64,000 nucleotides of DNA from Gammaproteobacteria bacterium (GCA_013288885.1 JABDBA010000009.1:4713-68712); one strand, 5' to 3'; shown: positions 4,079 through 52,727, counted from the stretch's first letter. The notes: a model not told the origin generated them from the letters alone. Translations and numbers: made by a program.

Positions 4079-5023
4079 TTAAGTTTTATTAGCAACCACA
4101 GTAATACCAGCATCTTGAACATTAATATGCTCAATTTTCAAACCAGCTTCACTACACCATTTTTTAATCTCTTCTGGAGTATGCCTCTGACAGTTAAGAG
4201 GTCTAAACCAATCAAAATTAACATGGTTCATTTCATCAAACGAATATTCTGGGCGATAATATAACTTGCAAATATTCCAATAGAAAAAACGTTGAATATC
4301 AAGTTTTCCTTTGTTGATACCCAAATAAGGAATATCTTCTGGTACATCTACATCGATATTAAGTTCACCCAATGCAATACCCAATTTTGTTAAAGGTTCT
4401 AACGCCCTCCATGCTTGCTCATCTGACATGACCTGTAGTTGCTGGCGAATATGATCATCAGTAAATTCACGGACTGTTGCTTTTTTTCGATAAACATAAA
4501 ATAGAAAACGGCCACCTACTCGCAATTTTTTCGCGAGCACTTTAATTGATTGTTCTGTGTTATCCGTATGATGTAGCACACCCTCTGAAAAAATTATATC
4601 GGTAGAGTTATCTGGGATTGGAATATCAAGTAAACTGGTTTTAATAAAATCACCTTGATATCCCGCTTCAGCAAATCGTTCTCTTGCCACATTAACTGCG
4701 TCAGAAATATCAACACCGAGATAATCATGGTTAGTTAAATATTTATCAAAAAAAAGTAACGCGGAGTGACCGGAACCACAACCCGCATCTAAAATTATTT
4801 TTCGATCGCCTGCTAACCATTTTTCCAATCGTGTTGGATCATTATCACAATAACGCTCATATAACCATTTCTTGGTAGATTCTTTGACCGCTTCAGATTC
4901 ATAGGTATCACGTTTAGCCCATTTAAAGCCAAACGTTTGCTCTGTTTGTGATTGCGCATCACTGTACGCAGAATCTACTTTGAATTCAGCTTCATTAACC
5001 CCTAGTCTTGCCAATGCTGACAT
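4079..5023 (-). CDS. Class I SAM-dependent methyltransferase
   Basis: Motif I ILDAGCGSGHSALLF and a post-I acidic residue (GVDIS). 314 aa. Confidence 0.7.
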   Translation of the reverse strand: MSALARLGVNEAEFKVDSAYSDAQSQTEQTFGFKWAKRDTYESEAVKESTKKWLYERYCDNDPTRLEKWLAGDRKIILDAGCGSGHSALLFFDKYLTNHDYLGVDISDAVNVARERFAEAGYQGDFIKTSLLDIPIPDNSTDIIFSEGVLHHTDNTEQSIKVLAKKLRVGGRFLFYVYRKKATVREFTDDHIRQQLQVMSDEQAWRALEPLTKLGIALGELNIDVDVPEDIPYLGINKGKLDIQRFFYWNICKLYYRPEYSFDEMNHVNFDWFRPLNCQRHTPEEIKKWCSEAGLKIEHINVQDAGITVVANKT

Positions 5024-11468: not shown

Positions 11469-11513
11469 GCTCAAATCCCCCCTAGCCCCCCTTTTTCAAA
11501 GGGGGGAACAGGA
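11469..11513 (+). repeat. Hairpin repeat family A, variant 1 (AAATCCCCCCTAGCCCCCC-TTTTTCAAA-GGGGGGAACAGG)
   Basis: C6/G6 stem with a 9-nt loop. The same sequence occurs at 25712-25754 and, inverted, at 19698-19743. Confidence 0.9.
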
Positions 11514-12216
11514 TATCCGCCAACACCGGCACATGTTCATCTTGTTGCGGGGTGGGCATTTCTAAGCGAGAAAATTCATTGCTGTTGGGCAACTCAAACG
11601 TAAAGTGAGATAATTTCTGTAACGATATCAAACCTTCTGCCAATTCAAAATCAAGCACGTGGCCGCCGATCGTTTGGGTGTTATCAATGAAATGAAAATG
11701 ATAGCCGGGCATTTTAATATGTTCCATGTAATCGGGTGCGAAGAATCCGATGGCGTCGCCTTGGATGTTATGTAAATCAAATTCCCTGCTTTCATCGATA
11801 ATTTCTTTGATAGTTTTATAGGGCTTTGTTTGTTTAGGCACGCTGGCTATTTTTAGCTTAGAAAATTTTCCGCTGATATGAATTGCTAATAAAAAATTTT
11901 TGCTGCCAATTTGTTTTTCAATGCTTGCTTTGAGGTTTTCTAGACGAGTATTAGTAGTGATATTAATATTCAAATCATTATTAAATTTGCAAACTGCTGC
12001 CCAACAAAGGCGTGAACTTGCAGAAGCTAATTGTGCTTTGCCGTTAGTGCAGTGGAAAAATTTTCCGTGCAGTGCAATTAATTCACCTTCGAGTGCATTG
12101 AAAGAACCTAAACCAAAATCACCGCGTTGTTGTAGGTTGGGGAGTGAAAGATCGCCGTCGTACAAGCCGTTTTGCACGGCGATGAAAGTGGAGTATTGGT
12201 ACAGTGTATTTGACAT
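11482..12216 (-). CDS. budA: Alpha-acetolactate decarboxylase
   Basis: N-terminus LYQYSTFIAVQNGLYDGDLSL...GDFGLGSFNALEGELIALHGKFFH is typical AlsD/BudA. The last residues FPPLKKGG and the stop are encoded by repeat A. Confidence 0.8.
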   Translation of the reverse strand: MSNTLYQYSTFIAVQNGLYDGDLSLPNLQQRGDFGLGSFNALEGELIALHGKFFHCTNGKAQLASASSRLCWAAVCKFNNDLNINITTNTRLENLKASIEKQIGSKNFLLAIHISGKFSKLKIASVPKQTKPYKTIKEIIDESREFDLHNIQGDAIGFFAPDYMEHIKMPGYHFHFIDNTQTIGGHVLDFELAEGLISLQKLSHFTFELPNSNEFSRLEMPTPQQDEHVPVLADILFPPLKKGG

Positions 12217-12218
12217 CG

Positions 12219-12275
12219 CAAAATCCCCCCGCCTCGCTTAGCGCTCGTCGGCCCCCTTTTTCAAAGGGGGCGACA
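12219..12275 (+). repeat. Hairpin repeat family A, variant 2 (AAATCCCCCCGCCTCGCTTAGCGCTCGNCGGCCCCC-TTTTTCAAA-GGGGGC)
   Basis: A near-identical copy lies at 19773-19826. This copy ends 3 nt upstream of the budA start codon. Confidence 0.9.
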
Positions 12276-12317
12276 GCCTTAATTCTGCAGCAACGTCTTT
12301 AAGAGTGTAAACAATTC

Positions 12318-19673: not shown

Positions 19674-19697
19674 TGGGAAACCAGAAAAAACTCTGAA

Positions 19698-19743
19698 TTT
19701 CCTGTTCCCCCCTTTGAAAAAGGGGGGCTAGGGGGGATTTGAG
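19698..19743 (-). repeat. Hairpin repeat family A, variant 1 (inverted copy)
   Basis: Reverse complement of the 11469-11513 and 25712-25754 sequence. Confidence 0.9.
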
Positions 19744-19772: not shown

Positions 19773-19826
19773 CAAAATCCCCCCGCCTCGCTTAGCGCTC
19801 GGCGGCCCCCTTTTTCAAAGGGGGCA
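19773..19826 (+). repeat. Hairpin repeat family A, variant 2
   Basis: Near-identical to 12219-12275. Ends 2 nt from the gyrA stop codon. Confidence 0.9.
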
Positions 19827-19828
19827 AT

Positions 19829-22420
19829 TTACAAGCCAGGCTCCACTATACCCCCATCATCAACTTGGCCTACACCAGCCCCATCATCAACCACTTCTTC
19901 TACGCGCTGCAAGCCGACTAATTTTTCGCCTTCGTTAAGGCGGATTAAACGCACGCCTTGCGAATTGCGGCCAGCGCTACGAATTTCATCGACACGGGTG
20001 CGTACCAACGTACCGCGATCGCTGATCAACATAATTTCATCGGTCGGCACGACTTGAATAGCGCCCACCACTTGCCCGTTGCGTTCAGTTACTTTAATGG
20101 CCACTACACCTTGACCGCCACGCCCTGTAACACGATGTTCATCGATGGGTGTGCGTTTGCCATAACCATTTTCAGTCGCGGTAAGAATTTCACCTTGCGG
20201 CTCAGCAATAATTAACGAAATCAGGCGTTGGCCTTCTTTAAGTCTCACTCCGCGCACACCGCGTGCTACACGGCCCATGCTACGCACTTTGCTTTCGGCA
20301 AAACGAATCGCTTTACCGGAGTTTGTAAACAATAATACATCACGTTGGCCATCGGTCAACGCCACGCCGACTAAGCGATCGGTGTCATCTAAACCTAGTG
20401 CGATAATGCCATCAGCACGCGGCCGTGAAAAATCAGAAAGACTGGTTTTTTTCACCGTACCATTCGCCGTCGCCATAAAAATATATTTATCTTCTTGATA
20501 TTCACGCACCGGTAAAATGGCATGAATATTTTCGTTCTCTGCCAACGGCAATAAATTAACGATCGGTTTACCGCGTGAAATACGGCTGCCTTCGGGTAAT
20601 TTATACACTTTGAGCCAATAAACTTTGCCTAAACTGGAGAAGCACAATAACGTATCATGAGTATTCGCAATCAACAGATGTTCTACTACGTCTTCATCTT
20701 TCACGCTGGTCGCGGCTTTACCTTTGCCACCACGACGTTGCGCTTGATACGCATCCATAGCTTGCGTTTTAGCATAACCTTCGCGCGAAAAAGTGACTAC
20801 CACATCTTGTGATGGTATTAAATCTTCGTGGTTAAAATCAGCGTCATTGCTGGTAATTTCGGTGCGGCGCGCATCGCCAAAATCTTTTTGAATCGCTAAT
20901 AATTCCGCACGAATCACTTGCATTAAGCGATCGCCGCTGGATAAAATTTCAAGCAATTCTTTTATCGCATCGAGTTGTTGTTGATATTCAGCGATGATCT
21001 TATCTTGTTCTAAACCGGTCAAACGATGTAAACGTAAATCTAAGATCGCTTGCGCTTGCACTATTGATAAACGATAACCTGCTGCGGTTACCCCAAATTC
21101 AACGCCGAGTTCTTCGGGTTTAGTAATCACACTCCCTGCACGTTCTAACATCTGCACCACAGCACCGGGCTGCCAAGTTTTTTCAACTAATTTTGTTTTA
21201 GCTTCGGCAGGATCTTTAGCGGCTTTAATTAACGCAATAATCGGATCAATGTTGACCAGCGCGATGCCAAGACCTTCTAAAATATGGGCGCGATCACGCG
21301 CTTTGCGCAAATCAAACAATGTTCTACGCGTTACTACTTCGCGTCGATGACGAATAAAAGCTTCGATAATTTCTTTTAAATTTAAGATGCGCGGTTGATT
21401 GTCAACTAACGCTACCATATTGATACCAAACACGGTCTGCAATTGGGTTTGTACATATAAATTATTTAATACTACATCGACTATTTCGCCACGGCGTAAT
21501 TCGATATAGATGCGCATGCCTTCTTTATCGGATTCATCGCGCAGTGCAGTAATGCCTTCAATTTTTTTATCTTTCACCAATTCGGCGATGCGTTCGATCA
21601 AGCGCGCTTTGTTGACTTGATAAGGCAGTTCCGTGACGATAATCGATTGCTTACCATTTTTCGCATCGGTTTCAATATGTGTTTTTGAGCGTATAAAAAT
21701 GCGGCCACGGCCGGTGCGATACGCTTCGAGAATGCCCGCACGCCCTTGAATAGTCGCGGCAGTGGGGAAATCAGGGCCAGGAACATGTTGCATGAGTTGT
21801 TCTAAATCGAGTTCAGGGTTATCGATTAGTGCAATACAGGCATTGATCACTTCGGTTAAATTATGCGGCGGAATGTTGGTCGCCATACCCACGGCAATAC
21901 CGGAAGAACCATTAATGAGTAGATTAGGTATTTGGGTCGGAAATACCACAGGGGCATGTTCGGTGCCATCGTAGTTAGGTGCAAAGTCGACGGTTTCTTT
22001 GTCTAAATCGGCCATTAGGGCATGGGCGAGTCGTGCCATGCGGACTTCGGTATAACGCATTGCTGCTGGGGCATCGCCGTCGACGGAGCCGAAGTTTCCC
22101 TGGCCATCGATGAGTGGGTAGCGCAGCGAAAATGGTTGTGCCATGCGAACAATGGTATCGTAAACTGCGGTGTCACCGTGGGGGTGATATTTACCGATCA
22201 CGTCACCGACTACGCGGGCGGATTTTTTATAGGCTTTGTTCCAGTCGTTGCCAAGTTCGACCATGGCGTATAATACGCGCCGATGGACGGGTTTTAAGCC
22301 ATCGCGGACATCGGGCAGCGCTCGCCCGATGATTACGCTCATCGCGTAGTCGAGATACGATTGTTTTAGTTCAGATTCGATGGTAACTGGGATAATTTCG
22401 TTAGCAGGTTGGTTTATCAT
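19829..22420 (-). CDS. gyrA: DNA gyrase subunit A
   Basis: [30 protein letters not shown]..., active-site region [21 protein letters not shown]. The start is trimmed to the ATG at 22420; the track's 35-aa N-terminal extension is implausible. Confidence 0.97.
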
Positions 22421-24461: not shown

Positions 24462-24474
24462 GAAAAACACCGTT

Positions 24475-24504
24475 GTCGGCTCCGCTACGCTTGAGCCGAC
24501 CTAC
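24475..24504 (-). repeat. REP-like singlet (family B, GTAG plus hairpin) between convergent genes
   Basis: The reverse complement reads GTAGGTCGGCTCAAGCGTAGCGGAGCCGAC (GTAG followed by an 8-bp stem). Confidence 0.75.
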
Positions 24505-25383: not shown

Positions 25384-25713
25384 ATGAAAAAAGCATTGAG
25401 TTATTTTTGTGCATTATTGTTCTTTGCCGTGAATTTAAGCGCTTTTGCAGACCCACCTCCTTCTATACCACCCGGACAACACCCTGGCGCTATTGCGATG
25501 ACTGCTGATGCTGTTCTAATGCGACCATTGTTATTGGCTGCTACTATCGGGGGAGCTGTGGTATTTATTGCAACACTTCCCTTTTCCGCTATGGGCGGAA
25601 ATGTGCATCAAGCTGGGGAAGCATTAGTAGGCGTTCCCGCTAATGCTACTTTTAAGCGCTGTTTGGGTTGTGATACCACCGATGGCACTGATGCAAGTGC
25701 TGTGAGTTACTAA
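25384..25713 (+). CDS. Exported or membrane protein of unknown function
   Basis: The start is moved to the ATG at 25384 (AAGGAG upstream), giving signal peptide MKKALSYFCALLFFAVNLSAFA. There is an internal hydrophobic segment. The stop codon lies at the edge of repeat A. Confidence 0.5.
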   Translation: MKKALSYFCALLFFAVNLSAFADPPPSIPPGQHPGAIAMTADAVLMRPLLLAATIGGAVVFIATLPFSAMGGNVHQAGEALVGVPANATFKRCLGCDTTDGTDASAVSY

Positions 25714-25754
25714 ATCCCCCCTAGCCCCCCTTTTTCAAAGGGGGGAACAGGAAA
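25712..25754 (+). repeat. Hairpin repeat family A, variant 1
   Basis: Same sequence as 11469-11513. Confidence 0.9.
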
Positions 25755-25756
25755 TT

Positions 25757-25845
25757 GTAGGTCGGATCAAGGAGCGCAGCGACGGATCCGACATACAATG
25801 CTAGCAATTATCGCTGTCGGTTCCGCTTCGCTTGAACCGACCTAC
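25757..25845. repeat. REP doublet (BIME-like, family B)
   Basis: GTAGGTCGGATCAAGGAGCGCAGCGACGGATCCGACA, then a 21-nt linker, then TGTCGGTTCCGCTTCGCTTGAACCGACCTAC. These are two inverted GTAG-hairpin units. Confidence 0.85.
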
Positions 25846-25862
25846 CTGTTTGATCCCTTGCT

Positions 25863-28921: not shown

Positions 28922-29188
28922 CTACCGTTTTAATTTCTTATAGACTTCACCACCGTTACGTTTGCCAATTAATTTAATGTAAACAATAGAATCGTCGAAG
29001 CTATAGATAATACGGTATTCGCCAATATCGACACGATACATGTCATCAAAACCCTGTAATTTAGATGAATCATGAGGTCTTAGATTTTTTATAAGGCACA
29101 AAACAGTGGTGACAATTTGTTTATATTGTTTGGCAGGTAAATCCATTAAAAAATCACCTGCGTGTTTTGATAAGTCAATCTTGAGCAT
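28922..29188 (-). CDS. RelE/ParE-family type II toxin
   Basis: 88 aa. ...YRVDIGEYRIIYSFDDSIVYIKLIGKRNGGEVYKKLKR is typical of RelE/StbE. Overlaps the upstream antitoxin gene by 14 nt. Confidence 0.8.
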   Translation of the reverse strand: MLKIDLSKHAGDFLMDLPAKQYKQIVTTVLCLIKNLRPHDSSKLQGFDDMYRVDIGEYRIIYSFDDSIVYIKLIGKRNGGEVYKKLKR

Positions 29189-29438
29189 GTTTATGACGGG
29201 CTTCTAATTGTTTTAATAAAGCGGCGGATTCTTCAGGACCTAAAGAACCTGTTTTGCTGGCTTCTATTGCTTTAAGTCCCCAGACTAAATCTTCTAGTTC
29301 TAAAAACTTTTGGTAATCATGATAGGAAACAATAACATAAGCCGTGCGACCATTTTTGTCGACAGAGACAGGCTCTCGTTGCGAGGCTTCAAGATATTGA
29401 CCAAGCTTATTTTTTAGTTCAGTTGCTGTTACGTGCAT
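29175..29438 (-). CDS. Phd/YefM-family antitoxin
   Basis: MHVTATELKNKLGQYLEASQREPVSVDKNGRTAYVIVSYHDYQKFLELED. The start is trimmed to the ATG at 29438. Confidence 0.75.
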   Translation of the reverse strand: MHVTATELKNKLGQYLEASQREPVSVDKNGRTAYVIVSYHDYQKFLELEDLVWGLKAIEASKTGSLGPEESAALLKQLEARHKHAQD

Positions 29439-29624
29439 AAAGATACCCTTAAGGAAATAAATGTCTAAAATAGCTAATTTGTCTATATTAGACATTATAG
29501 ACCATTGCACAAATTATTCAAGGCAAAAGTTTTCTACGAGATAACACAGTTTAACTTACATTATAATATAATGAACTAATTCATAAATATAGCAATTTTT
29601 AATATTAATCGCTAAAAAATTAAC

Positions 29625-38898: not shown

Positions 38899-41211
38899 CT
38901 AAAAGTTTGTTCCAACGTTAAATTGGAATGGTTCAAGCTGATCACCAGCATGTTTGTTAAGTGCCTTCGCTAAACTCACGTCTAATAATACATTTAATAC
39001 CGGTACACGCCAATCCACAGATAAACCGGCTGAATACCGCGGCCCACCCCCACTCATACCACCCCTTACTGCAGCCTGGCTAGTGTACACGTTACCACCA
39101 TCCACAAAAAGCGTAGTGCGTAGTTTATCTTCACTGATGTAATTTGGGAAGATGATCCCTAATGATCCTGTGGCCAATTTATTACCACCCAGTGGGTTCT
39201 GTTGTGAATCGAGCGGCCCTAAGGTGTTTGATTCATAACCGCGCACTGCCCCGTCATACCCTATGCCACCGGCATAATAGTTAGCAAAGAACGGCAACCC
39301 ATGGGTAGGCCCTATACCCGCACCATACCCTAATCCGGCGCGCCCGGTAAAGATATAATTTCCGTAGATGGGCTGGTAAAAATTCATATCGTAGTTAGTT
39401 TTATAATAATCTAACGAAGTACCACCACCCGGTGCTGAAAGTTGTATGCCCAAATCTTCATAAATACCTTTGGTCGGGAAAATAGCGCGATCTAAACCGT
39501 TATGCGACCAACCGGCATTCCACAATGTTTGATTAAAATGTCTGCCATTTGAATTAACAAAGTTAGTTACCTGGGTCGAGGGGTCTGACCCCACCGATAA
39601 AAAGGTTACCTGATAACCATAACCTAACTGAAGAAAATCGCCATTGGCACTGATCGGGATGCTGTAATTAACCGTACCGCCGTACATATTGGTGGTGTAA
39701 GAAGCAATATTCACGTTACCCGGTGTAACGCGTTGTGCATACAGAGTAAACCCACGTTGAATACCGCTTTGGGTGTAATACGGATCATTATAATTAATAC
39801 TGTATATTCTTTCGTATTCGCTTTGATTAAAGTTTACACCTACTGTTTTGCCCGTTCCCATAAAATTAGTTTGGTTAACACCAGCGCCTAACACCCACCC
39901 ATCCGTACCGTAACCCACCGATGCCATGGCTTGTGCTGAAGGGGCTTCTTCCACTTTGTAATTAATATCGACTTGATCAGGTGAACCTGCAACAGGATCG
40001 GTGGTTGAACTTACATTTTGCAAATAACCCAACAAATTAAGTTGACGTTCTGATTCTTTCACGGCACTGGTGGAAATTAAACCGCTTTCCATTTGCGTGG
40101 TTGCGCGTCGCAATACCACATCTTCTGTTTTTGTATTACCGATAAAATTAACATGGCGCACGTAAACCCGATTACCCGGTTCAATATAAAACGTTAAAAA
40201 TACTTGGTGATTGGCGTCATCGACTTTCGGCACAACATTAACATTGGCAAACGCATAACCCATATCACCATAGGCAGTAGTAATAGCTTTTGTCAGTGCA
40301 TCATTTTTGCCTTTAGAATAAACATCCCCTTTTTGTATATTGATCGCTTTTTGCAGCTTGGTTTGCGATAAAACAATATTGCCGATGATTTGATACCCAC
40401 TAACGGTATACACCGGGCCTTCGGTTACTGAAATAATGATATAAACAAAATTGCGATCGGGCGTTAATGTAGCTTGCACAGTATCGATCTTAAATTTGAG
40501 GTAACCACGATCTTGATAATAAGAGGTCAGTGCATCTAATGACTTATGTAGTTTGTCAGAAGTATAAAGATCACCGTGCGTGAAGAACGACCACATATGT
40601 GGTTCTGTCAACGGTAAGCTATTAATTAATTTTCTGCTACTGAATACATGATTGCCGACAATGCTGATTGCGCGCACTTGTACTGAACGTCCTTCTGAAA
40701 TTACAATTTTGATAGCAACGCGATTGCGTGGTTCTGGTGTTACTGTTGTTGTTACTTTGGAATTATATTTGCCTTGATTGTCGTATTCATTTTCTAAACT
40801 GGTTCTAAAGGCTTCTAAGGTGGAGTTATCAAATACCGCGCCTTGGACTAAGCCGGTTTTTTTCAAGACATCGTCTAGTTTATCTTTAGGTACGACTTTG
40901 TTGCCGGTCACATCGATATTGCTAATAATTGGGCGTTCATTGACCCTGACAATTAGTGTGCTACCTTGCTGTGATAAAGCTACATCGTTAAATAAGCCAG
41001 TAGCGTACATGGTCTTAATAACCTGCCCGGATTGTGCGGTGTCGAATTTTTGGCCGACGTGCACAGGCAAATAACTCAACACGGTATCGCTACTAAGCCC
41101 TTGCAGGCCTTCGACTTGGATGTTGGTTACAATAAACGTGCTCGCGTAAGTGGTGGTGATTAAAACCCCCGCGAGGAATAATGCAATGCTGATTTTGACT
41201 AGGACGCGCAT
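38899..41211 (-). CDS. bamA: Outer membrane protein assembly factor BamA
   Basis: POTRA repeats plus a C-terminal beta-barrel ending ...FQFNVGTNF. The start is trimmed to the ATG at 41211, giving signal peptide MRVLVKISIALFLAGVLITTTYA. Confidence 0.93.
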   Translation of the reverse strand: MRVLVKISIALFLAGVLITTTYASTFIVTNIQVEGLQGLSSDTVLSYLPVHVGQKFDTAQSGQVIKTMYATGLFNDVALSQQGSTLIVRVNERPIISNIDVTGNKVVPKDKLDDVLKKTGLVQGAVFDNSTLEAFRTSLENEYDNQGKYNSKVTTTVTPEPRNRVAIKIVISEGRSVQVRAISIVGNHVFSSRKLINSLPLTEPHMWSFFTHGDLYTSDKLHKSLDALTSYYQDRGYLKFKIDTVQATLTPDRNFVYIIISVTEGPVYTVSGYQIIGNIVLSQTKLQKAINIQKGDVYSKGKNDALTKAITTAYGDMGYAFANVNVVPKVDDANHQVFLTFYIEPGNRVYVRHVNFIGNTKTEDVVLRRATTQMESGLISTSAVKESERQLNLLGYLQNVSSTTDPVAGSPDQVDINYKVEEAPSAQAMASVGYGTDGWVLGAGVNQTNFMGTGKTVGVNFNQSEYERIYSINYNDPYYTQSGIQRGFTLYAQRVTPGNVNIASYTTNMYGGTVNYSIPISANGDFLQLGYGYQVTFLSVGSDPSTQVTNFVNSNGRHFNQTLWNAGWSHNGLDRAIFPTKGIYEDLGIQLSAPGGGTSLDYYKTNYDMNFYQPIYGNYIFTGRAGLGYGAGIGPTHGLPFFANYYAGGIGYDGAVRGYESNTLGPLDSQQNPLGGNKLATGSLGIIFPNYISEDKLRTTLFVDGGNVYTSQAAVRGGMSGGGPRYSAGLSVDWRVPVLNVLLDVSLAKALNKHAGDQLEPFQFNVGTNF

Positions 41212-41369
41212 AATTGTTATTTTAATGATTACCTTAAGCTTTGACCAAAAATTTTGCCGAGGCATCATATCATTATTCCACCCCAAAGCTATAGCCTAGA
41301 TCGGTAAAATACAGTTTTTTATTTATTTCCTGCGAAACAACCAAAATAGTGCAAATTTTGAGCGGAAGA

Positions 41370-41577
41370 GTAAATAGCTGCCTGGTTATTGCTTGTCTCT
41401 CATATGCGAGCGTAACCCTCGTATCGAGGCGTGCTCACTTGCTCGCTAGACAAACATCCCTGTTTACTAGCGAGCGGCGTCATCCATGACGCCGCCCTTT
41501 CGGGCGAAGGTTGCGCGCGCGCTCTCTACTCGGCGCTCGCACAAATCGAGCCAATCAATAACCAGGCAGCTATTTAC
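41370..41577 (+). repeat. Family C hairpin element, copy 1 (208 bp, terminal inverted repeats GTAAATAGCTGCC...)
   Basis: Termini GTAAATAGCTGCCTGGTTATTG / CAATAACCAGGCAGCTATTTAC. Internal hairpins CTCGCTAG...CTAGCGAG and GGCGGCGTCAT-CC-ATGACGCCGCC. Confidence 0.85.
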
Positions 41578-41598
41578 GCTTCATATATTTGTGTGCGA

Positions 41599-41668
41599 GT
41601 AGGTCGGCTCAAGGAGCGTAGCGACGGAGCCGACATTAGTAATGCTCATTAACATCGCTGCCGGAAAG
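41599..41668. repeat. REP-like element (family B), right arm degenerate
   Basis: GTAGGTCGGCTCAAGGAGCGTAGCGACGGAGCCGACA followed by a decayed second arm. Confidence 0.7.
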
Positions 41669-41711
41669 CTACGCTATCCCACGAAAAGACACCTGAGAAC
41701 CTGGCAGCTAT

Positions 41712-42911
41712 TTACCCTTCTGTGCAGAGGGATGTTTTATCTTTCCGCACCCCACTTTTATCATAATTAAAAGAACTCGGATAACCAGCACCATTCCATA
41801 TCATGTCAAATAATGGTTTAAATACTTTATCTAAACCTAAACTATCCTCCAGCAAAAACTCGTTTATCAAAATATCAGGGGTTTGAATAATATCGCGATC
41901 AAACCTTTTCTCATCGCGATCAAAAGGGGAATTATTTCCATAGATCAGTACTACATTTTTTACACCAATAAGTGTTAAAAAAATAACAATGGGCGGTGTA
42001 ATTTGCAATTCACGAAATATCCCTTCACATTTGTTGTAAAAACTTAGTATCTGTTGTTCAAAATCTTGTTGGAGTATCGTTTTACCATTACAAGGAGGTA
42101 TACTGTTTACAGATTCGATGGAACCATTACGAAATAACATTGTATAACCGTGCGATCCACCCTCAACCAAACCTCTATGGCGAAATACACCGTCAATGTT
42201 AATACAATCTGAACCATCCGCACTACGCATTAAAGGCAGCTGATAAGCTGAATCCAAACTATCCAAATATTTATTTATATCTATTAGTGAATTTTGTAAA
42301 AACGAATAGACAGGTATTAAATGAAAAACTAATTTAGGATATGGTTGCAATGGAATAGGGGAATTATCATAGAGTAATTCACTTATTCTTTTAGCTCGAA
42401 AGTTTTTAATTTTTTCTTGAAACCCTTCCGTTGTTAAAACAGCATTTCTGACTTCAAAAACATCCATAGGCTGATTGCATGCTGAAGCACGAATATAAAA
42501 ACGATTCGATTTTTTAGCAGCATGCGGCTTATTTAAACTTTGTATTATTTTTAGAATTAAAACTTTCTTTGTACTATCCTCAACTATTTTAATATCAGAT
42601 CCATAAAAACTAGGTTCAGTATTAGTTCTAATGACTTCAGTAATCTTTCGTATTTCACCATCTGAGTTACTTATCTCTATACCAGATATAGCGGTAGGAA
42701 ATCCATCCTTTTCTTCCATACCGTAAACAATATACCCACCAGATGCATTTGCAAATGCACACACATCATTAATAAAACCTTCTTTTTCTTTATCATTAGA
42801 AAAATTTGGTAATTTACTTTTGTAATCAATATATTTTGATTCCGGAACTTTATTCTCCACTAAGCCTGTAATATCCGAGAACTTAATTTGGCTAAACGAT
42901 TCAAAAAGCAT
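41712..42911 (-). CDS. Schlafen/AlbA_2-domain protein with an uncharacterised C-terminal half of about 230 aa
   Basis: The N-terminal 150 aa follow the AlbA_2 pattern: ESKYIDYKSKLP...FINDVCAFANASGGYIVYGMEEKDG...VLILKIIQSLNKPH...FYIRASACNQPMDVFEV. I recognise no motif in the C-terminal half. Confidence 0.6.
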   Translation of the reverse strand: MLFESFSQIKFSDITGLVENKVPESKYIDYKSKLPNFSNDKEKEGFINDVCAFANASGGYIVYGMEEKDGFPTAISGIEISNSDGEIRKITEVIRTNTEPSFYGSDIKIVEDSTKKVLILKIIQSLNKPHAAKKSNRFYIRASACNQPMDVFEVRNAVLTTEGFQEKIKNFRAKRISELLYDNSPIPLQPYPKLVFHLIPVYSFLQNSLIDINKYLDSLDSAYQLPLMRSADGSDCINIDGVFRHRGLVEGGSHGYTMLFRNGSIESVNSIPPCNGKTILQQDFEQQILSFYNKCEGIFRELQITPPIVIFLTLIGVKNVVLIYGNNSPFDRDEKRFDRDIIQTPDILINEFLLEDSLGLDKVFKPLFDMIWNGAGYPSSFNYDKSGVRKDKTSLCTEG

Positions 42912-43029
42912 GACATACTCCTCAAGACTATACCTATTGCAAAATTTCCAACAGTTTATATTTAATTGGTTTTCAATACCTGGTTATTCTCACCTTTGTA
43001 TAGATGGTAGGATTGCCTTTCGAGTTGCT

Positions 43030-43159
43030 CTATTTCAAAACTCTCTTAGCAATTCGATAAATTTCTCCGTCATTTCGTTTACCAACCAAGACTATCGTTA
43101 CTATTTACTATGTCTTTTTCAGGTTCAAATCGATAGATAATCCTATATTCGCCTATAAG
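43030..43159 (-). pseudogene. RelE/ParE-type toxin remnant (C-terminal third only, frameshifted)
   Basis: The reverse strand reads LIGEYRIIYRFEPEKDIV... then, after a 1-nt shift, VTIVLVGKRNDGEIYRIAKRVLK*. Compare the intact toxin at 28922-29188 (IGEYRIIYSFDDSIVYIKLIGKRNGGEVYKKLKR). Confidence 0.55.
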
Positions 43160-43164
43160 AGATC

Positions 43165-43248
43165 ATGTGGTCAAGTCTACGATCTATGTATTTGACAATA
43201 TTTTGCGCAAAATATTGTCAAATACATAGATCGTAGACTTGACCACAT
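43165..43248. repeat. Perfect 84-bp palindrome (40-bp arms around a central GCGC)
   Basis: ATGTGGTCAAGTCTACGATCTATGTATTTGACAATATTTT GCGC AAAATATTGTCAAATACATAGATCGTAGACTTGACCACAT. Checked base by base. Confidence 0.95.
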
Positions 43249-43260
43249 CGCCTTTTTCTC

Positions 43261-43354
43261 CGCGGCTCAAGGAGCGTAGCGACGGAGCCGACAGCGATAA
43301 TGATTTAGCATCGAATGTCGGATCCGTCGCTGGCGCTCCTTGATCCGACCTACC
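43261..43354. repeat. REP doublet (BIME-like, family B)
   Basis: ...GGCTCAAGGAGCGTAGCGACGGAGCCGACA - linker - TGTCGGATCCGTCGCTGGCGCTCCTTGATCCGACCTAC. Confidence 0.85.
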
Positions 43355-43372
43355 TGCACTCAGATATAAAGC

Positions 43373-43581
43373 GTAAATAGCTGCCAGATGACTTGCTTGG
43401 CTTGAGTTGTGCAAGCGCCGAGTAGAGGGTGCGGCGCAACCTTCGCCCGTAGGGCGGCGTCATGGATGACGCCGCTCGCTAGTAGACAGGGATGTTTGTC
43501 TAGCGAGCAAGTGAGCACGCCCCGAATACGAGGAGCAAGCTTGCACACGAAAGACAAGCAAGTCATCTGGCAGCTATTTAC
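43373..43581 (-). repeat. Family C hairpin element, copy 2 (inverted relative to copy 1)
   Basis: The core is homologous to the reverse complement of 41370-41577. Termini GTAAATAGCTGCCAGATGACTTGCTTG / CAAGCAAGTCATCTGGCAGCTATTTAC. It ends 5 nt before the dxr stop. Confidence 0.85.
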
Positions 43582-43586
43582 ACATT

Positions 43587-44762
43587 TTACGGGTGGCGAT
43601 TTAAGAGTTGCGCACATTCTCGTGCAGCGGCGTTGTCTTGCAGGATGATGTCTAAGTTCGTGGCGGGTCGTGATGGAAGTTTGTTTAACACTTTATCGAC
43701 GGTGATGGCGATATCGGTGAATGCCATTTTGCCGTCTAAAAATGCTTGCACGGCAATTTCGTTAGCGGCATTTAAAATGGTTGGTGCAGTACCGCCTGTT
43801 TGCAGTGCTTGATACGCTAAATTTAAACACGGGTAACGTTCAGTATCTAACACCGCAAAATCTAACTTGCCTAAAGTCAATAAATCCAAATTATTCACCC
43901 CACTGGCGATGCGTTCGGGCCAAGCCAAGGCATGGGCGATCGGCACGCGCATATCGGAACAACCCAAATGCGCTAAGGTAGAACCATCTTTATATTCCAC
44001 TAATGAATGCACCGTGCTTTGTGGATGCAATAAAACTTTAATTTGATCCGCAGGTAAACCAAATAACCAATGCGCTTCGATCACTTCTAAACCTTTATTC
44101 ATCATGGTAGCGCAATCGACAGTAATCTTTGGGCCCATGTTCCAATTCGGATGAGTAATTGCTTGCGCCGGTGTCACATTGGGCAAATCCGTTAACGGCA
44201 ACTCACGAAATGCACCACCCGAAGCGGTCAATAAAATTCGGGCAATTTTAGCATTGCGTTCACCCATTTTAAAATCAGTCGGCAGGCACTGAAAAATAGC
44301 ATTGTGTTCGCTATCAATTGGCAATAACGTTGCATTGTGATCACGCACTTCTTTCATAAACAATGCACCCGCCATCACTAACGCTTCTTTATTAGCTAAT
44401 AAAACACGCTTGCCTGCTTTTGCTGCCGCTAATGTCGGCAACAAACCTACCGCTCCGACAATAGCAGCCATCACGATATCGGCTTGCGGCAGGCTAGCTA
44501 CTGTTTCTAAACCAGCATTGCCTATTAACACTTCAATTGTTAAATTAATTTTTTGTAAGCGTTGTTGCAATAATTTAGCACTCGCTTCATCCGCCACCAC
44601 AGCATATTCAGGGCGATGCAATGCGCACAGATCATATAAACGATCAATATTTTTATGCGCAGTCAATGCCAGCACCCGAAAATTTTCACGATGACGGGCA
44701 ATAATATCTAACGTGCTTAAACCAATTGATCCTGTTGCACCTAAAATAACAATATTTTTCAT
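43587..44762 (-). CDS. dxr: 1-deoxy-D-xylulose 5-phosphate reductoisomerase
   Basis: ILGATGSIGLSTLDI N-terminus. 391 aa. Confidence 0.95.
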   Translation of the reverse strand: MKNIVILGATGSIGLSTLDIIARHRENFRVLALTAHKNIDRLYDLCALHRPEYAVVADEASAKLLQQRLQKINLTIEVLIGNAGLETVASLPQADIVMAAIVGAVGLLPTLAAAKAGKRVLLANKEALVMAGALFMKEVRDHNATLLPIDSEHNAIFQCLPTDFKMGERNAKIARILLTASGGAFRELPLTDLPNVTPAQAITHPNWNMGPKITVDCATMMNKGLEVIEAHWLFGLPADQIKVLLHPQSTVHSLVEYKDGSTLAHLGCSDMRVPIAHALAWPERIASGVNNLDLLTLGKLDFAVLDTERYPCLNLAYQALQTGGTAPTILNAANEIAVQAFLDGKMAFTDIAITVDKVLNKLPSRPATNLDIILQDNAAARECAQLLNRHP

Positions 44763-45556
44763 AACAGCCCCATTGAAAAAACACCACAGGCAAACACCGG
44801 TGCAGCAGCGATAACACTATCAAGCCGATCTAAAATCCCACCATGCCCTGGTAGTAAATTACCACTGTCTTTGATATTAACTTGCCGCTTGAGATAACTC
44901 TCTAATAAATCACCGATAACTGCCGCAATAAAAGCAGGTATAGTCGCTTTGATCCAACCGAATGATGATTGCTCTGGTGTGCCCAAAAACCATTGTCCTA
45001 ATATTGCAATCAGAATAATAACTAGCAATGCCACAAATGTGCCTTCCATGGTTTTATTCGGGCTAATCACCGGCGCTAATTTTCGTTTACCTAAAGCACG
45101 TCCGCCAAAATACGCAGCCGTATCGGCCATGCAAACCACCACCAATAAATAAAATAATAATATCGGTTTAAGATGCAATAATAATATTGCTTCGAAAAAA
45201 GGAACCAGCAATAAAACCCCACCGATACCAATTAACCAACGTGGAAATTTAATCAGTTGTGCTTTTTTACGCACGATAGCAATAAATATAAACAGCGCAA
45301 ACCAAATAATTGAACTCACGCCAATAATAAACACGGGCGGTAAAAACAAGGCTAAGATAATCGCCACCAGCACATAAGCCACATACAACAAACGCCATTG
45401 GGTTTTAGTCCAACCAATTAACTGCGCCCACTCCCAAGCCGCTAGCAATGTGACGATTGCACACACAGGCGTAAAATAAGTTTGCGGTAAATAAAAAATC
45501 GCCGCCAAGACCAGAGGAATTAAAACACACGCGGTTAAAATACGGTATTTAAGCAT
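44759..45556 (-). CDS. cdsA: Phosphatidate cytidylyltransferase
   Basis: Signature SYLKRQVNIKDSGNLLPGHGGILDRLDS. The start is trimmed to MLKYRILTA at 45556, giving an 8-nt overlap with uppS. Confidence 0.9.
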   Translation of the reverse strand: MLKYRILTACVLIPLVLAAIFYLPQTYFTPVCAIVTLLAAWEWAQLIGWTKTQWRLLYVAYVLVAIILALFLPPVFIIGVSSIIWFALFIFIAIVRKKAQLIKFPRWLIGIGGVLLLVPFFEAILLLHLKPILLFYLLVVVCMADTAAYFGGRALGKRKLAPVISPNKTMEGTFVALLVIILIAILGQWFLGTPEQSSFGWIKATIPAFIAAVIGDLLESYLKRQVNIKDSGNLLPGHGGILDRLDSVIAAAPVFACGVFSMGLL

Positions 45557-46283
45557 TGGCAAGTTGCTCGATTTGTTCGCCAGTATGGCCAAAACGGCGT
45601 TGGCGGCTGGCGTAAAAAGATAAAGCATCGGCTAAAATTTTGCTATCCACATCAGGCCAAAAAATATCAGTAAAATAAAATTCGGTATAAGCTAATTGCC
45701 ATAACATAAAATTACTGATGCGGCGCTCACCACTGGTGCGAATAAATAAATCGGGTTCGGGTAAATCAGCCATTTCTAACAATGAAGCAAAAAGTTCCTG
45801 CGTCAGCGTATCAGCTGTGGTTTTACCTTGTTCAACCTGTTGCGCAAATTTGCGTGCCGCTTGTACGATGTCCCAACGCCCACCGTAATCGGCAGCAATA
45901 ATTAATTTTAAACCAGTATTATTAGCCGTCAGTTGTTGTGCTTTGGTAATGCTATTGAGTAACTCAGGGCTAAAGCGTGAGCAGTCACCCACTATTCGCA
46001 TTTGAATATTATTTTTATGGAGTTCTTCCACTTCATTTTGCAAAGCCGATAAAAACAACCCCATTAAACCTTTGACTTCGGGCAACGGTCGCTGCCAATT
46101 TTCACTGCTAAAAGCGAAGAGTGTTAATACTTCGATGTTAGCTTCGGCACAAGCACGCACTACGCGTTTGACGGTTTTTAAACCTTCGTAATGGCCAGCC
46201 ATGCGTGGAAGATGACGTTGTTTTGCCCAACGACCATTACCGTCCATTACAATGGCGATGTGTTTAGGAAGTTTGGGTTGCAT
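45549..46283 (-). CDS. uppS: Undecaprenyl diphosphate synthase
   Basis: HIAIVMDGNGRWA motif. Confidence 0.95.
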   Translation of the reverse strand: MQPKLPKHIAIVMDGNGRWAKQRHLPRMAGHYEGLKTVKRVVRACAEANIEVLTLFAFSSENWQRPLPEVKGLMGLFLSALQNEVEELHKNNIQMRIVGDCSRFSPELLNSITKAQQLTANNTGLKLIIAADYGGRWDIVQAARKFAQQVEQGKTTADTLTQELFASLLEMADLPEPDLFIRTSGERRISNFMLWQLAYTEFYFTDIFWPDVDSKILADALSFYASRQRRFGHTGEQIEQLANA

Positions 46284-46291
46284 AGTTTAAT

Positions 46292-46849
46292 TTAAACTTC
46301 CATCAATTCTTTTTCTTTGATCGCACAAAGCCGATCCACTTCCGCCACGAATTTATCGGTGAGTTTTTGAATCGCATCTTGCAAACCGCGCTCTGCATCT
46401 TCGCTCAATTCTTTTTTCTTCAGTTGTTCTTTAAGTTGGTTATTGGCATCACGACGAATATTACGCAATGAAACCCGCGCATTTTCTGCTTCGCCTTTTA
46501 CTAACTTCGCCATTTCTTTACGACGTTCTTCACTTAAGGGTGGCAACGGCACACGTATATTGTTGCCAGTCGCTGCGGGGTTCAAACCGAGATCAGAAGT
46601 GACGATCGCTTTTTCGATTGCTTGCACCAATGATTTTTCCCACGGCGCAACCATTAAGGTACGCGAATCAGAAATGGTAATGCTCGCCACTTGGCTAAGT
46701 GGCACGTCATTGCCATAATAAGGAACGCGGATATGATCGAGCAAGCTCGGATGCGCGCGCCCGGTGCGTAACTTTGCTAATTCATTTTGCAAAGCTTCAA
46801 TCGCTTTTTTCATTTTACTTTCAGTGGTACTTTTTATTGCATCGCTCAT
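46292..46849 (-). CDS. frr: Ribosome recycling factor
   Basis: 185 aa with a typical RRF sequence ([16 protein letters not shown]). Confidence 0.97.
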
Positions 46850-46916
46850 GTTGCCTCCACTTGATTATTAATTTATAGCACCCCATGTCTACATTTTTGT
46901 TTTACTCAATCTAAAC

Positions 46917-47642
46917 TTAATCCACCAATGTGCCTTCATCACTGCCAGTCACAATTCGCATTAAAATACCGGGCTTATTAATATTAAACACCCGAATCGG
47001 TAACTTATGATCACGGCACTGACAAAAAGCGGTTAAATCCATCACGCCCAATTCTTTTTCAAGCGCCTCTTGATAACTCAAATGTTTATATAATGTTGCT
47101 TTAGGATTGTGTTCTGGATCAGCCGAATAAATGCCATCGACATCAGTGGCTTTCAACAAAATATCCGCGCCAATTTCAATGCCGCGCAAACTGGCTGCTG
47201 AATCGGTAGTGACTAACGGGTTACCGGTGCCACCAGCAAAAATCACTATGTGCTGTTGTTGCAACTGTTCAATAGCATTGTGCCGACTATAATGCTCGGC
47301 CCAACCATTAACCGGAATGGCCGACATCACTCGACAGTGAACACCAGAATTTTCTACCGCATCACGCATCGCCAACGCATTCATCACCGTCGCCAACATA
47401 CCCATTTGATCGCCGGTAACACGATTAATGCCAATGGTAGTTAATGCAGCACCGCGGAATAGATTACCACCGCCGACCACAACACCTACCTGTACATTTA
47501 AACGCGCTACTGCCACGATTTCTTTCACTAAACGCTCTAACACCACTGGATCAATACCTAAAGTGGCTTGACCCAATAACGCTTCGCCACTGAGTTTTAA
47601 TAACACACGTTTATAAATCGCTTTAGTATTATTACTCGACAT
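46917..47642 (-). CDS. pyrH: UMP kinase
   Basis: [14 protein letters not shown]-terminus. Confidence 0.97.
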
Positions 47643-47693
47643 AACTTAGTTCCCACTCTTAAAAATACAGTTATCTCATATGCTCTAAGCAAT

Positions 47694-47787
47694 TGGATTT
47701 TCGGCTAGGCGTCAAGTCGCGAGCAAGCGGAGCATATGGGTTATATGTGAGCATTGCGAGCGACGCAGACAACAACGCCGAAAGTCC
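47694..47787. repeat. Imperfect palindromic intergenic element between tsf and pyrH
   Basis: Arms TGGATTTTCGGC...TCGCGAGCAA / TTGCGAGCGA...GCCGAAAGTCCA with mismatched interior. Confidence 0.45.
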
Positions 47788-49465: not shown

Positions 49466-49626
49466 AATAATCTCCGATTGTATTGTGGGTTGGGCCTCCA
49501 TCTACTCCATATCTCAAGCTTTTAAGGGCCACCCTAGAGATATGTGTCGGTAGATGTGTGGATTTATTTGCGTTTATGCGCCATGCTTTATACCATAGAT
49601 AGTTATTTACGACAACGGTACTTTAT

Positions 49627-51402: not shown

Positions 51403-51504
51403 GATCCTAGGGGTCAGATCTTGACTTGCTACATGCTAAAGAGACAGTTATTGAGCCCTATAATTTCTAAGCAAGTAGCAAGTCAAGATCTGACCCCTAG
51501 GATC
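51403..51504. repeat. Perfect 30-bp inverted repeat with a 42-nt spacer
   Basis: GATCCTAGGGGTCAGATCTTGACTTGCTAC (51403-51432) and its exact reverse complement (51475-51504), starting 6 nt after the ansA stop. Confidence 0.95.
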
Positions 51505-51564
51505 GTTACGAAACAGTTCGTTACGAAACAGTTCGTCACGAACCATTGCGTTACGAACCAGTTC
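51505..51564 (+). promoter_or_regulatory. Four tandem 15-bp direct repeats (GTTACGAAACAGTTC consensus) upstream of the ATPase gene. Candidate operator or iteron array overlapping a promoter.
   Basis: Units at 51505, 51520, 51535 and 51550. The first two are identical; the third and fourth differ at a few positions. They are followed by TATACT (51574-79), AGGAGG (51587-92) and the ATG at 51603. Confidence 0.6.
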
Positions 51565-51602
51565 GTGGTAAGCTATACTTGAATTTAGGAGGCTAGTATC
51601 CC

Positions 51603-52727
51603 ATGAAACCAAGAAAATATTTCCCCCTCGGCAAGGCTTACGGCACTGCGTTTTGTAATCGCGTCAAAGAAGTTGACTGGTTAACCGGCAATTTGCTGAG
51701 TGTGAAACATACCTTGTTAGTTGCGCCTCGGCGTTATGGCAAATCCAGCTTAGCTGAAAAAGCAATAACCAATGCAAAACTACCGTTTGTAAAAATTAAT
51801 TTTCATCTTTGTGCGACCGAGGAAGAAGTAGCGCAAATTATCGTCAACAAGGTCATTAAACTGATTGGCAATGCCGTAGGGCAAGTCGATAAAATAATTA
51901 CTGCGATTAAGAAAAATGTTTTAAATTTAAGCCCCAAATTATCGTTTGGTGATGATATAGCCACGCTTGAACTCATCCCTAAACAACATATTAATCAAGC
52001 GATAGTAATTTCAGAAGCATTATTGCTACTCGATAAACTATTACATGAAAAAGATAAAAAAGCTGTTATATTCTTTGATGAATTTCAAGAAATCGCAAAA
52101 ATTAGTAAGCAATCGAATATAGAAGGGGCCATCAGAACAGCCGCACAAGAAATGCAAAATTTATCGATTATTTTCTCGGGCAGTATCCGCTCATTACTAT
52201 TGAGAATGTTTGAAGATGAAAGCAGACCGCTTTATAAGCTATGCAGAAAACTTAAATTAGAACGCATTGCGGCTAATGATTATAAAAAACATCTTAACAA
52301 AATCTCTTTAGAAACGTGGGATAAAGAATTAGCAGAACAATCTTTTAATGAAATTATGCATTATTCTAGCACGCACCCTTATTATGTTAATTATTTATGT
52401 GATATTCTCTGGCAAGAATGCGATAAATTACCCACCGCTAATGATGTGAAAAAAGCATGGGCTATTGTGGTGGAAGAAGAATGGAGTGATGCCTCAAAAG
52501 AAGTGTCTTTATTATCTTTAAACCAAAGAAAAATGCTAAAATATATTGCAACCCATGCAGCAGTTAATCTAACGAGCCAAGAAACTAGCCGAGAATTGAT
52601 GATGGCCACCAGTACCACCACCTCTGCCCTAGAGGCTTTAATCGAAAAAGACTACATTGAAATAGATGGTAGCGGGCACTATAAAATCATTAACCCGGTT
52701 ATAGCAGCAATGTTAGTGATGGAATAA
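51603..52727 (+). CDS. ATPase of the Arch_ATPase/ATPase_2 (PF01637-like) type with a C-terminal winged-helix-like region
   Basis: Walker A LLVAPRRYGKSSL, Walker B VIFFDEFQEI. 374 aa. Confidence 0.65.
   Translation: MKPRKYFPLGKAYGTAFCNRVKEVDWLTGNLLSVKHTLLVAPRRYGKSSLAEKAITNAKLPFVKINFHLCATEEEVAQIIVNKVIKLIGNAVGQVDKIITAIKKNVLNLSPKLSFGDDIATLELIPKQHINQAIVISEALLLLDKLLHEKDKKAVIFFDEFQEIAKISKQSNIEGAIRTAAQEMQNLSIIFSGSIRSLLLRMFEDESRPLYKLCRKLKLERIAANDYKKHLNKISLETWDKELAEQSFNEIMHYSSTHPYYVNYLCDILWQECDKLPTANDVKKAWAIVVEEEWSDASKEVSLLSLNQRKMLKYIATHAAVNLTSQETSRELMMATSTTTSALEALIEKDYIEIDGSGHYKIINPVIAAMLVME

Follow-up and report, generated by a model that had tools for sequence, protein, structure and literature searches.

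Prokaryotic Schlafens (pSlfns) are single-polypeptide nucleases in which a Slfn/AlbA_2 N-terminus with an Ex4(E/D)xK catalytic motif is fused to a C-terminal domain, following an effector-plus-sensor logic (Perez Taboada et al., Nat Microbiol 2026, PMC13056530). Here we describe a gene of this type in a 64,000-nt stretch of DNA from a Gammaproteobacteria bacterium (GCA_013288885.1, JABDBA010000009.1:4713-68712; hereafter the window). The gene lies in a 2,375-bp interval between dxr and bamA and is bracketed by mirror-image copies of a repeat unit composed of an element (C) that resembles MITEs (miniature inverted-repeat transposable elements), a short spacer and a repetitive extragenic palindromic element (REP; family B). 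The interval is an insertion relative to the corresponding loci of relatives. It is probably a small, partly decayed, horizontally acquired islet, one that arose by insertion and local rearrangements at a repeat-marked site and is now static.

The protein encoded in the interval shares with the described pSlfns the Slfn/AlbA_2 N-terminus with the Ex4(E/D)xK motif, the single polypeptide and the fused C-terminal domain, and, as for them, the genes around its homologues vary and are connected with defence or mobile elements (PMC13056530). It differs in that it is known from sequence, that the fold of its C-terminal domain falls below significance (best Foldseek E = 0.03) and that its gene stands alone between two essential housekeeping genes, outside a defence island.

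The bracketing repeats resemble MITE-bounded composites, in which two non-autonomous copies with terminal inverted repeats enclose passenger DNA lacking its own transposase. TIME-COMPs are described as shown to mobilise (PMC4133298, PMC13367494), and possible mobilisation is described for an Acinetobacter integron enclosed by a pair of 439-bp MITEs (PMC3934969). The present islet has the same general arrangement, but it lacks a target duplication, its flanking copies are ~12% diverged, no second instance was found and its repeated unit is a MITE-plus-REP hybrid rather than a single MITE. Both TIME-COMPs and the MITE-flanked integron reportedly have target-site duplications and near-identical flanking copies.

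REP/BIME clusters and the insertion sequences that target REPs, such as IS1397, ISKpn1 and ISPpu9/10, offer another comparison. As in such clusters, several palindromic families are stacked in intergenic DNA here, and the spacing and orientation of C relative to a REP arm are the same on either side, as with a REP-targeting element. However, there are only two C-B junctions, and C is lacking beside the B copies at 25757 and 24470. We know of no autonomous parent of C. Lastly, a toxin remnant in the interval corresponds to the last 34 residues of a ParE/RelE toxin that is intact and paired with a Phd/YefM antitoxin, but unlike type II modules of this kind it is truncated, frameshifted and without an antitoxin.

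Results

The interval interrupts a minus-strand block that runs rpsB, tsf, pyrH, frr, uppS, cdsA, dxr, the interval, bamA, skp, lpxD, fabZ, lpxA and lpxB. When 41370–43581 is deleted, the intergenic region becomes collinear with the dxr-bamA spacer of the closest relative (locus L083), and the order is restored as dxr stop, ~14 nt, CAAAATTTGCAC, CTATAGCTTT..GAATAATGATATGATGC, bamA ATG. The bamA upstream region retained in the window shares CAAAATTTG(C/T)AC and CTATAGCTTT..GAATAATGATATGATGC with L083. The whole 2.2-kb insert sits at a single point, 5 nt past the dxr stop, with no native sequence within it, and its ends are the outer termini of the two C copies. On the dxr side, the terminus GTAAATAGCTGCC of C-right (43569–43581) is 5 nt from the stop codon, which the extended repeat abuts. 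The cargo is low in GC, at 31–35% versus 40–45% for the flanks, and values range over 0.30–0.36 in the cargo and 0.38–0.51 in dxr and bamA. An accessory insertion had been proposed here in an earlier note, made from the sequence alone, and both the island-free relatives and the collinearity with L083 after deletion bear this out. No direct repeat of at least 2 bp flanks the insert (outer flanks ...TAAAATGT and TCTTCCGCT), and the sole possible target duplication is the TA inside every GTAAAT terminus.

Relatives were identified through their nearest Dxr homologues by protein search, after which the contigs were fetched. Five of the six most similar loci retrieved were informative; the contig of the sixth (L084) ends just past dxr. 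In all five, dxr is followed directly by bamA, with neither the islet nor rseP, across gaps of 217 bp in L083 (Dxr identity 78%), 47 bp in L085 (68%), 46 bp in L099 (67%), 56 bp in L100 (65%) and 15 bp in L004 (61%), and rseP was not found within the fetched flanks of any of them. L083 is the closest relative throughout (BamA 66%, LpxA 86%, RpsB 78%). Among the matches listed in a contig scan with conserved Dxr peptides, the best was only 64% identical. The window proteins are singletons in clusters at 90% identity and therefore have no close strain in the collections.

These loci change the meaning of the missing rseP gene. The earlier note had taken the interval as the slot where rseP is expected and had proposed an alignment with close relatives as a check. 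It was right that the interval holds no RseP-like open reading frame (ORF): tblastn finds no such sequence in the interval or in the 64-kb window, even at E = 10. The expectation itself fails, given that all five informative relatives lack rseP at this position with no island present, the very outcome that the note had named as evidence against its view. Nothing about the island can thus be read from rseP being absent. The order dxr-rseP-bamA is seen in more distant Gammaproteobacteria and in other phyla (Pfam check), and BamA identity is nested among the four loci compared (L083 66%, L085 53%, L004 48% and the rseP-bearing L003 39%). Most likely, an ancestor of the clade had already lost rseP from here when the island arrived, and the two events were independent, an order that follows the identity ranking rather than a tree. 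The motif GAATAATGATATGATGC upstream of bamA is conserved in the window (41270–41300) and in L083 (11238–11275), and takes the form ATGGTATGATGC in L085 (~4505–4550); it may be a bamA promoter or a regulatory element of the clade.

Five copies of the 13-nt C terminus lie in the window, starting at 41370(+), 41565(-), 41703(-), 43373(+) and 43569(-), against 0.10 expected in shuffles, none of which reaches five. Each full C copy has its own terminal inverted repeat of ~35 nt and 90–91% identity (35 nt at 91% in C-left), and as single-stranded DNA C-left folds into a long hairpin (-70 kcal/mol, z = -10.9). Element C is thus short (218–219 bp), non-coding and equipped with terminal inverted repeats and strong hairpin potential, properties by which MITEs are recognized. 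Everything that the earlier note had listed here, from the repeats and the palindrome to the Schlafen/AlbA_2 gene and the remnant of a toxin, was found at its stated position, far above chance, with some changes in extent. The inverted repeats of C run 5 nt further out on each side than it had proposed, and the solo C terminus, given there as 41703–41715, is at least 34 nt long (Table 1). This third copy is oriented away from the cargo and matches the left-end type slightly better.

When the left unit is aligned with the reverse complement of the right unit, the match runs through C, the spacer and the outer B arm over ~290 columns. Both the ~300-bp inverted composite repeats previously suggested as island bounds and the homology of their spacers are hereby confirmed. 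Counted as matches/mismatches/gaps, the alignment gives 28/7/1 and 29/5/2 in the C terminal repeats, 72/2/1 in a 75-nt C core, 11/4/1 in the inverted spacers and 36/3/9 in the B arm, or ~88% identity overall (~12% divergence). The core (41424–41498 versus 43451–43525) is 97% identical, while the remaining C, including the terminal repeats, is ~82% identical (Fisher p = 0.001). The raised identity could come from conversion between the two copies in their inverted arrangement, or from a constraint that function imposes on the hairpins of the core.

Within the window, C is present as two full copies and one fragment, every one of them at the dxr-bamA locus. Two Logan unitigs from the same sequencing run match exactly to 43516–47727 (L001) and 41608–43221 (L002). 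The former, on the dxr side, stops 24 nt before the first within-window 31-mer shared with the other C copy, which suggests that the genome carries at least one more C-like copy at another place or that the reads are heterogeneous. Neither unitig reaches across the junctions of the segment. Searches for C, B or the whole module in the relatives' loci (85 loci) found none of them. The C termini and core gave 0 matches in viral contigs, the C terminus pattern gave 0 matches in JGI metagenome contigs, the whole island had no blastn match in plasmids and phages, and Rfam returned nothing for C on the island. Three matches to the C core hairpin in JGI metagenome contigs were rejected as chance, all lying inside unrelated coding sequence. 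For a 78-aa pseudo-ORF over the C core, spacer and B, there was no candidate among 5.8 billion proteins.

The B component, in contrast to C, is an ordinary dispersed REP. Its core is found at 41605 and 43263 and, in diverged form, at 25763, against 0 expected by chance, and elsewhere in the window the family forms a doublet (25757–25846) and a single arm (24470–24504). B is hence a short palindromic intergenic repeat present at several loci as singlets and inverted doublets, as is characteristic of REPs and REPINs. The copies at 25757 and 24470 have neither C nor a spacer-like flank, and therefore the spacer goes with C or with the composite unit. The decayed inner arm of B-left may instead be the interior of a C fragment. 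REP-type elements occupy ~7 of the 16 intergenic gaps of at least 100 bp in the window, including family A hairpins with the core CCCCCTTTTTCAAAGGGGG at 11470–11516, 12238–12281, 19697–19743, 19792–19835 and 25712–25756. Family A occurs twice at 19.7 kb and lies directly on the B doublet at 25712–25846, and stacking of repeat families is therefore normal in this genome. The concern, raised in the earlier note, that the units might be ubiquitous intergenic filler is justified in part: REPs are common and stacked in the window, whereas C is seen at this locus only.

The one intact cargo gene encodes a 399-aa pSlfn with an N-terminal Slfn/AlbA_2 domain (Pfam PF04326, 8.3e-20, residues 24–149) and a C-terminal domain of ~250 aa. 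Its homologues are 383–401 aa long and align at 85–97% query coverage, and the protein is therefore full length. Its tail exceeds those of the homologues by ~6–8 residues, and the last two codons and the stop come from the solo C terminus. The motif E24-SKYI-D29-Y-K31 corresponds to Ex4DxK; all 11 aligned sequences have E at position 24 and K at 31, with D or E at 29, and by this alignment the catalytic motif is intact. In Foldseek, an AlphaFold2 (AF2) model of the protein (predicted local distance difference test score (pLDDT) 84) matches the tRNase domains of SLFN12, SLFN13, SLFN11, SLFN5, SLFN14 and SAMD9, and also DIP2311, with a probability of 1.00. By homology, the predicted product is a candidate phage-triggered tRNA-cleaving nuclease.

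The C-terminal domain is less clear. Modelled alone (pLDDT 78), its top PDB matches are all to TATA-binding protein (TBP), weak and below significance (Foldseek E = 0.03–0.1, template modelling (TM) score ~0.3). A TBP-like fusion class makes up 1.5% of pSlfns (PMC13056530) and possibly accommodates this domain, a membership that the weak matches leave unproven. The C-terminal 250 residues are common to 3,829 representative clusters, nearly all of ~390 aa, and the architecture is therefore a common one.

Homologues of the gene have varied neighbours. In Burkholderia, one follows higB-higA beside IS3; others follow a restriction-modification pair or occur with DUF4365. On the Legionella longbeachae plasmid pLLO-F1157CHC (L096, 3427–5128), a small gene for a "recombinase family protein" overlaps the homologue at its start, which fits the proposed use of small serine recombinases as defence-gene markers in a study that also validated a Schlafen protein (PMC13552941). 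In total, homologues were found on 46 plasmids and in none of the phage records.

Upstream of the Schlafen gene lies what is left of a toxin gene. Residues 55–65 and 68–88 of an intact paralogous toxin, part of a type II pair 14 kb away, match 43156–43124 and 43104–43042 in two frames (tblastn E = 2.6e-6), as two collinear segments with 82% and 62% identity. To the Pfam ParE_toxin model, the remnant scores 20 bits (cutoff 23) and the intact paralogue 25 bits. The remnant consists of the last 34 codons with one frameshift, without the first 54 codons and without an antitoxin; it is a pseudogene, a dead toxin. The RelE remnant recognized earlier is thus real, and the paralogue match refines it to the ParE/RelE family and sets its limits. 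It has no similarity to the HigB toxin beside the Burkholderia homologue.

A perfect 84-bp palindrome lies exactly at the truncation point of the toxin and is followed by a T-run on the plus strand. Unitig L002 runs 15 nt past its centre, and the palindrome is therefore present in the reads. One arm had no exact match in viral contigs, nor did the whole island have a blastn match in plasmids or phages, and Rfam gave only generic hairpin (miRNA) matches below threshold. An origin of the arm in the 5' part of the toxin gene was rejected: the paralogue matches downstream only, through residues 55–88, and the arm itself is noise. Pfam scores, which worsen when the arm is included, also disfavour it as toxin sequence. 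Template switching in replication or repair is a possible origin of the palindrome.

Table 1. Features of the dxr-bamA interval, its flanking genes and the intact toxin-antitoxin pair, in window coordinates
Feature	Position	Strand	Basis or remark
Intact type II pair: Phd/YefM antitoxin (111 aa) overlapping 88-aa ParE/RelE toxin	28922–29510	-	toxin 28922–29188; 14 kb from remnant
bamA (flank)	38899–41211	-	Pfam POTRA 2e-61, Omp85 9e-59; ATG at 41211 from sequence
Native bamA upstream region, intact, 153 bp	41212–41364	-	collinear with dxr-bamA spacer of closest relative (L083)
C-left, 218-bp MITE-like element, ~35-nt terminal inverted repeats	41365–41582	+	repeat finding, termini, fold
Left spacer, 16 nt	41583–41598	.	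35-nt inverted match at 86% takes in the spacers
B-left REP, outer arm intact, inner arm decayed	41599–41685	.	weak fold, z = -1.1
Solo C terminus, third C copy, truncated	41687–41720	-	34-nt inverted repeat, 79%
Schlafen (pSlfn) gene, 399 aa	41712–42911	-	Pfam SLFN_AlbA_2 PF04326, ~8e-20
ParE/RelE toxin 3' remnant	43042–43156	-	tblastn with intact paralogue, E = 2.6e-6
Perfect 84-bp palindrome, 42-nt arms, zero spacer	43165–43248	.	z = -17.5
B-right, REPIN-like REP doublet hairpin	43257–43353	.	-35.5 kcal/mol, z = -6.9
Right spacer, 14 nt	43354–43367	.	homologous to left spacer when inverted
C-right, MITE-like, inverted versus C-left	43368–43586	-	39-nt terminal inverted repeat, 90%; 75-nt core 97% identical to C-left
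dxr (flank)	43587–44762	-	Pfam DXP_reductoisom 2e-47 plus C-terminal domains

The window has other features outside the interval. A gene at 29625–34832 (+) encodes a 1,735-aa HEAT/Armadillo-repeat protein and contains an internal tandem duplication of 2,472 bp whose copies are up to 95% identical. Another, at 59186–63994 (-), encodes an ankyrin-repeat protein of 1,602 aa. Repeat proteins of this eukaryote-like sort suggest that this deep-branching gammaproteobacterium lives in association with a host or with amoebae. At 51403–51565, four tandem 15-bp units (GTTACGAAACAGTTC-like) come after an inverted repeat of 35 nt (97%). Both are upstream of an ATPase_2/AAA gene (51603–52727) that has the asparaginase and MatE genes on either side; the region may be another small insertion with an operator-like array. 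The sole Rfam match above the gathering score in the window is a t44 RNA (49489–49578, -, 58 bits) upstream of rpsB, the usual place of this RNA.

Discussion

We favour an islet that was probably acquired horizontally and has since partly decayed in place. It would have entered the dxr-bamA spacer in a lineage whose dxr and bamA genes normally adjoin each other, and would thus never have displaced rseP. Its sole intact cargo gene would encode a pSlfn with the Ex4DxK N-terminal domain as effector and the C-terminal domain, possibly TBP-like, as sensor. A ParE/RelE toxin-antitoxin module would once have adjoined this gene; after its destruction, 34 codons and a palindromic scar would be what is left. 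The islet is bracketed by mirror-image copies of a non-autonomous unit private to this genome (MITE-like C, spacer, REP B), with a third C fragment at the end of the Schlafen gene. The repeats may have marked the site beforehand, with C inserting in a specific orientation beside REP arms, or may have accreted at the islet edges. The native upstream region of bamA is untouched, and the essential genes are therefore unaffected.

Several local events are indicated by the truncated third C copy, the truncated toxin and the palindrome, and these scars, together with the missing target duplication and the 12% divergence, count for assembly in place. The stacking of REP families in further intergenic regions of the window points the same way. 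We infer a static arrangement rather than an active switch, and both the order of events and the immobility are part of that reading. In keeping with it, the transposase or recombinase that the earlier note could not see was also missing from a Pfam scan of the window ORFs of at least 100 aa taken as genes (~50 of the 61 listed, with overlapping shadow ORFs left out), none of which has such a domain.

Five observations weigh against this reading. The closest relative has only 78% Dxr identity, and the empty site is hence evidence at the genus rather than the strain level. The ends of the insert fall exactly on the outer termini, both intact, of the inverted unit copies, and nothing native lies inside, as would be the case for a MITE-bounded composite. 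The combination C, spacer and B on both sides is hard to obtain by independent accretion, unless the composite is mobile or C targets REP flanks. The TA found at each end of C could amount to a minimal duplication of the target in the style of IS630/mariner, and the absence of a longer duplication is therefore not decisive. Lastly, PADLOC and NCBIfam have no match to the pSlfn, and an anti-phage role follows from homology only.

The alternative that survives best, possible if unlikely, is a MITE-bounded composite transposon, in which the two C(+spacer+B) units served as ends for a trans-acting transposase and the Schlafen gene arrived in one 2.2-kb insertion. Intact termini of the same type in inverted orientation at the outer ends, and an insert at a single point of the empty site in L083 with no native sequence within, are what this predicts. 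Movement of passenger genes by MITE-bounded composites is documented (PMC4133298, PMC13367494, PMC3934969), and the L001 unitig break, 24 nt early, hints at more C copies elsewhere. However, apart from the TA common to all C ends there is no flanking direct repeat of at least 2 bp, the flanking copies are only ~88% identical and no transposase is present in the scanned ORFs of the 64 kb. Neither the module nor C was found in the relatives' loci, viral contigs, JGI metagenome contigs, plasmids or phages. C is also private to this genome while the cargo looks foreign, and an extra capture step would be needed. Intramolecular replicative transposition would leave a target duplication in inverted form, with one copy at an inner junction and the other at an outer one, and none is seen in the sequence.

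A bolder variant appears quite unlikely to us: C+spacer+B would be the end of an undescribed hybrid MITE/REP non-autonomous element, paired copies of which capture defence cargo of a single gene, in this case a Schlafen nuclease, and bring it to intergenic positions directly downstream of stop codons, or flip the cargo, with the 75-nt core as recognition or recombination site.

Less likely still is an invertible segment, in which the ~300-bp inverted repeats let the cargo flip via RecA or a site-specific recombinase and switch the Schlafen gene between sense and antisense to read-through from dxr. The arms are indeed inverted repeats of ~290 bp whose 75-nt core, at 97%, stands significantly above the rest, as gene conversion between recombining arms would give, and no sigma-70-like promoter is predicted upstream of the Schlafen start, so dxr read-through could matter. 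Yet there is no recombinase adjacent to the segment or in the scanned window ORFs, the inside holds only the pSlfn and remnants, the longest identical run between the arms is only ~36 nt (a poor RecA substrate) and the flanking genes would stay unchanged, with no obvious regulatory consequence. Replacement of rseP, with an ancestral dxr-rseP-bamA order disrupted by the insertion and rseP lost or moved, has the gene order of distant Gammaproteobacteria and other phyla in its favour and is nevertheless the least credible reading and effectively refuted, given that all five informative close relatives lack both rseP and the island, that the interval holds no rseP fragment (tblastn, E = 10) and that the insert flanks are collinear with the short dxr-bamA spacer of a relative.

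The argument from synteny needs correction, given that the block rpsB...dxr-(rseP)-bamA...lpxB is not universal. The locus also provides a clean example of a defence-type gene, a pSlfn, placed between two essential housekeeping genes with the bamA upstream region undisturbed. As it stands, this is an ordinary accessory islet, with its cargo bracketed by a private MITE+REP composite; if that unit were mobile, a MITE/REP-hybrid vehicle would be added to the routes by which defence genes travel.

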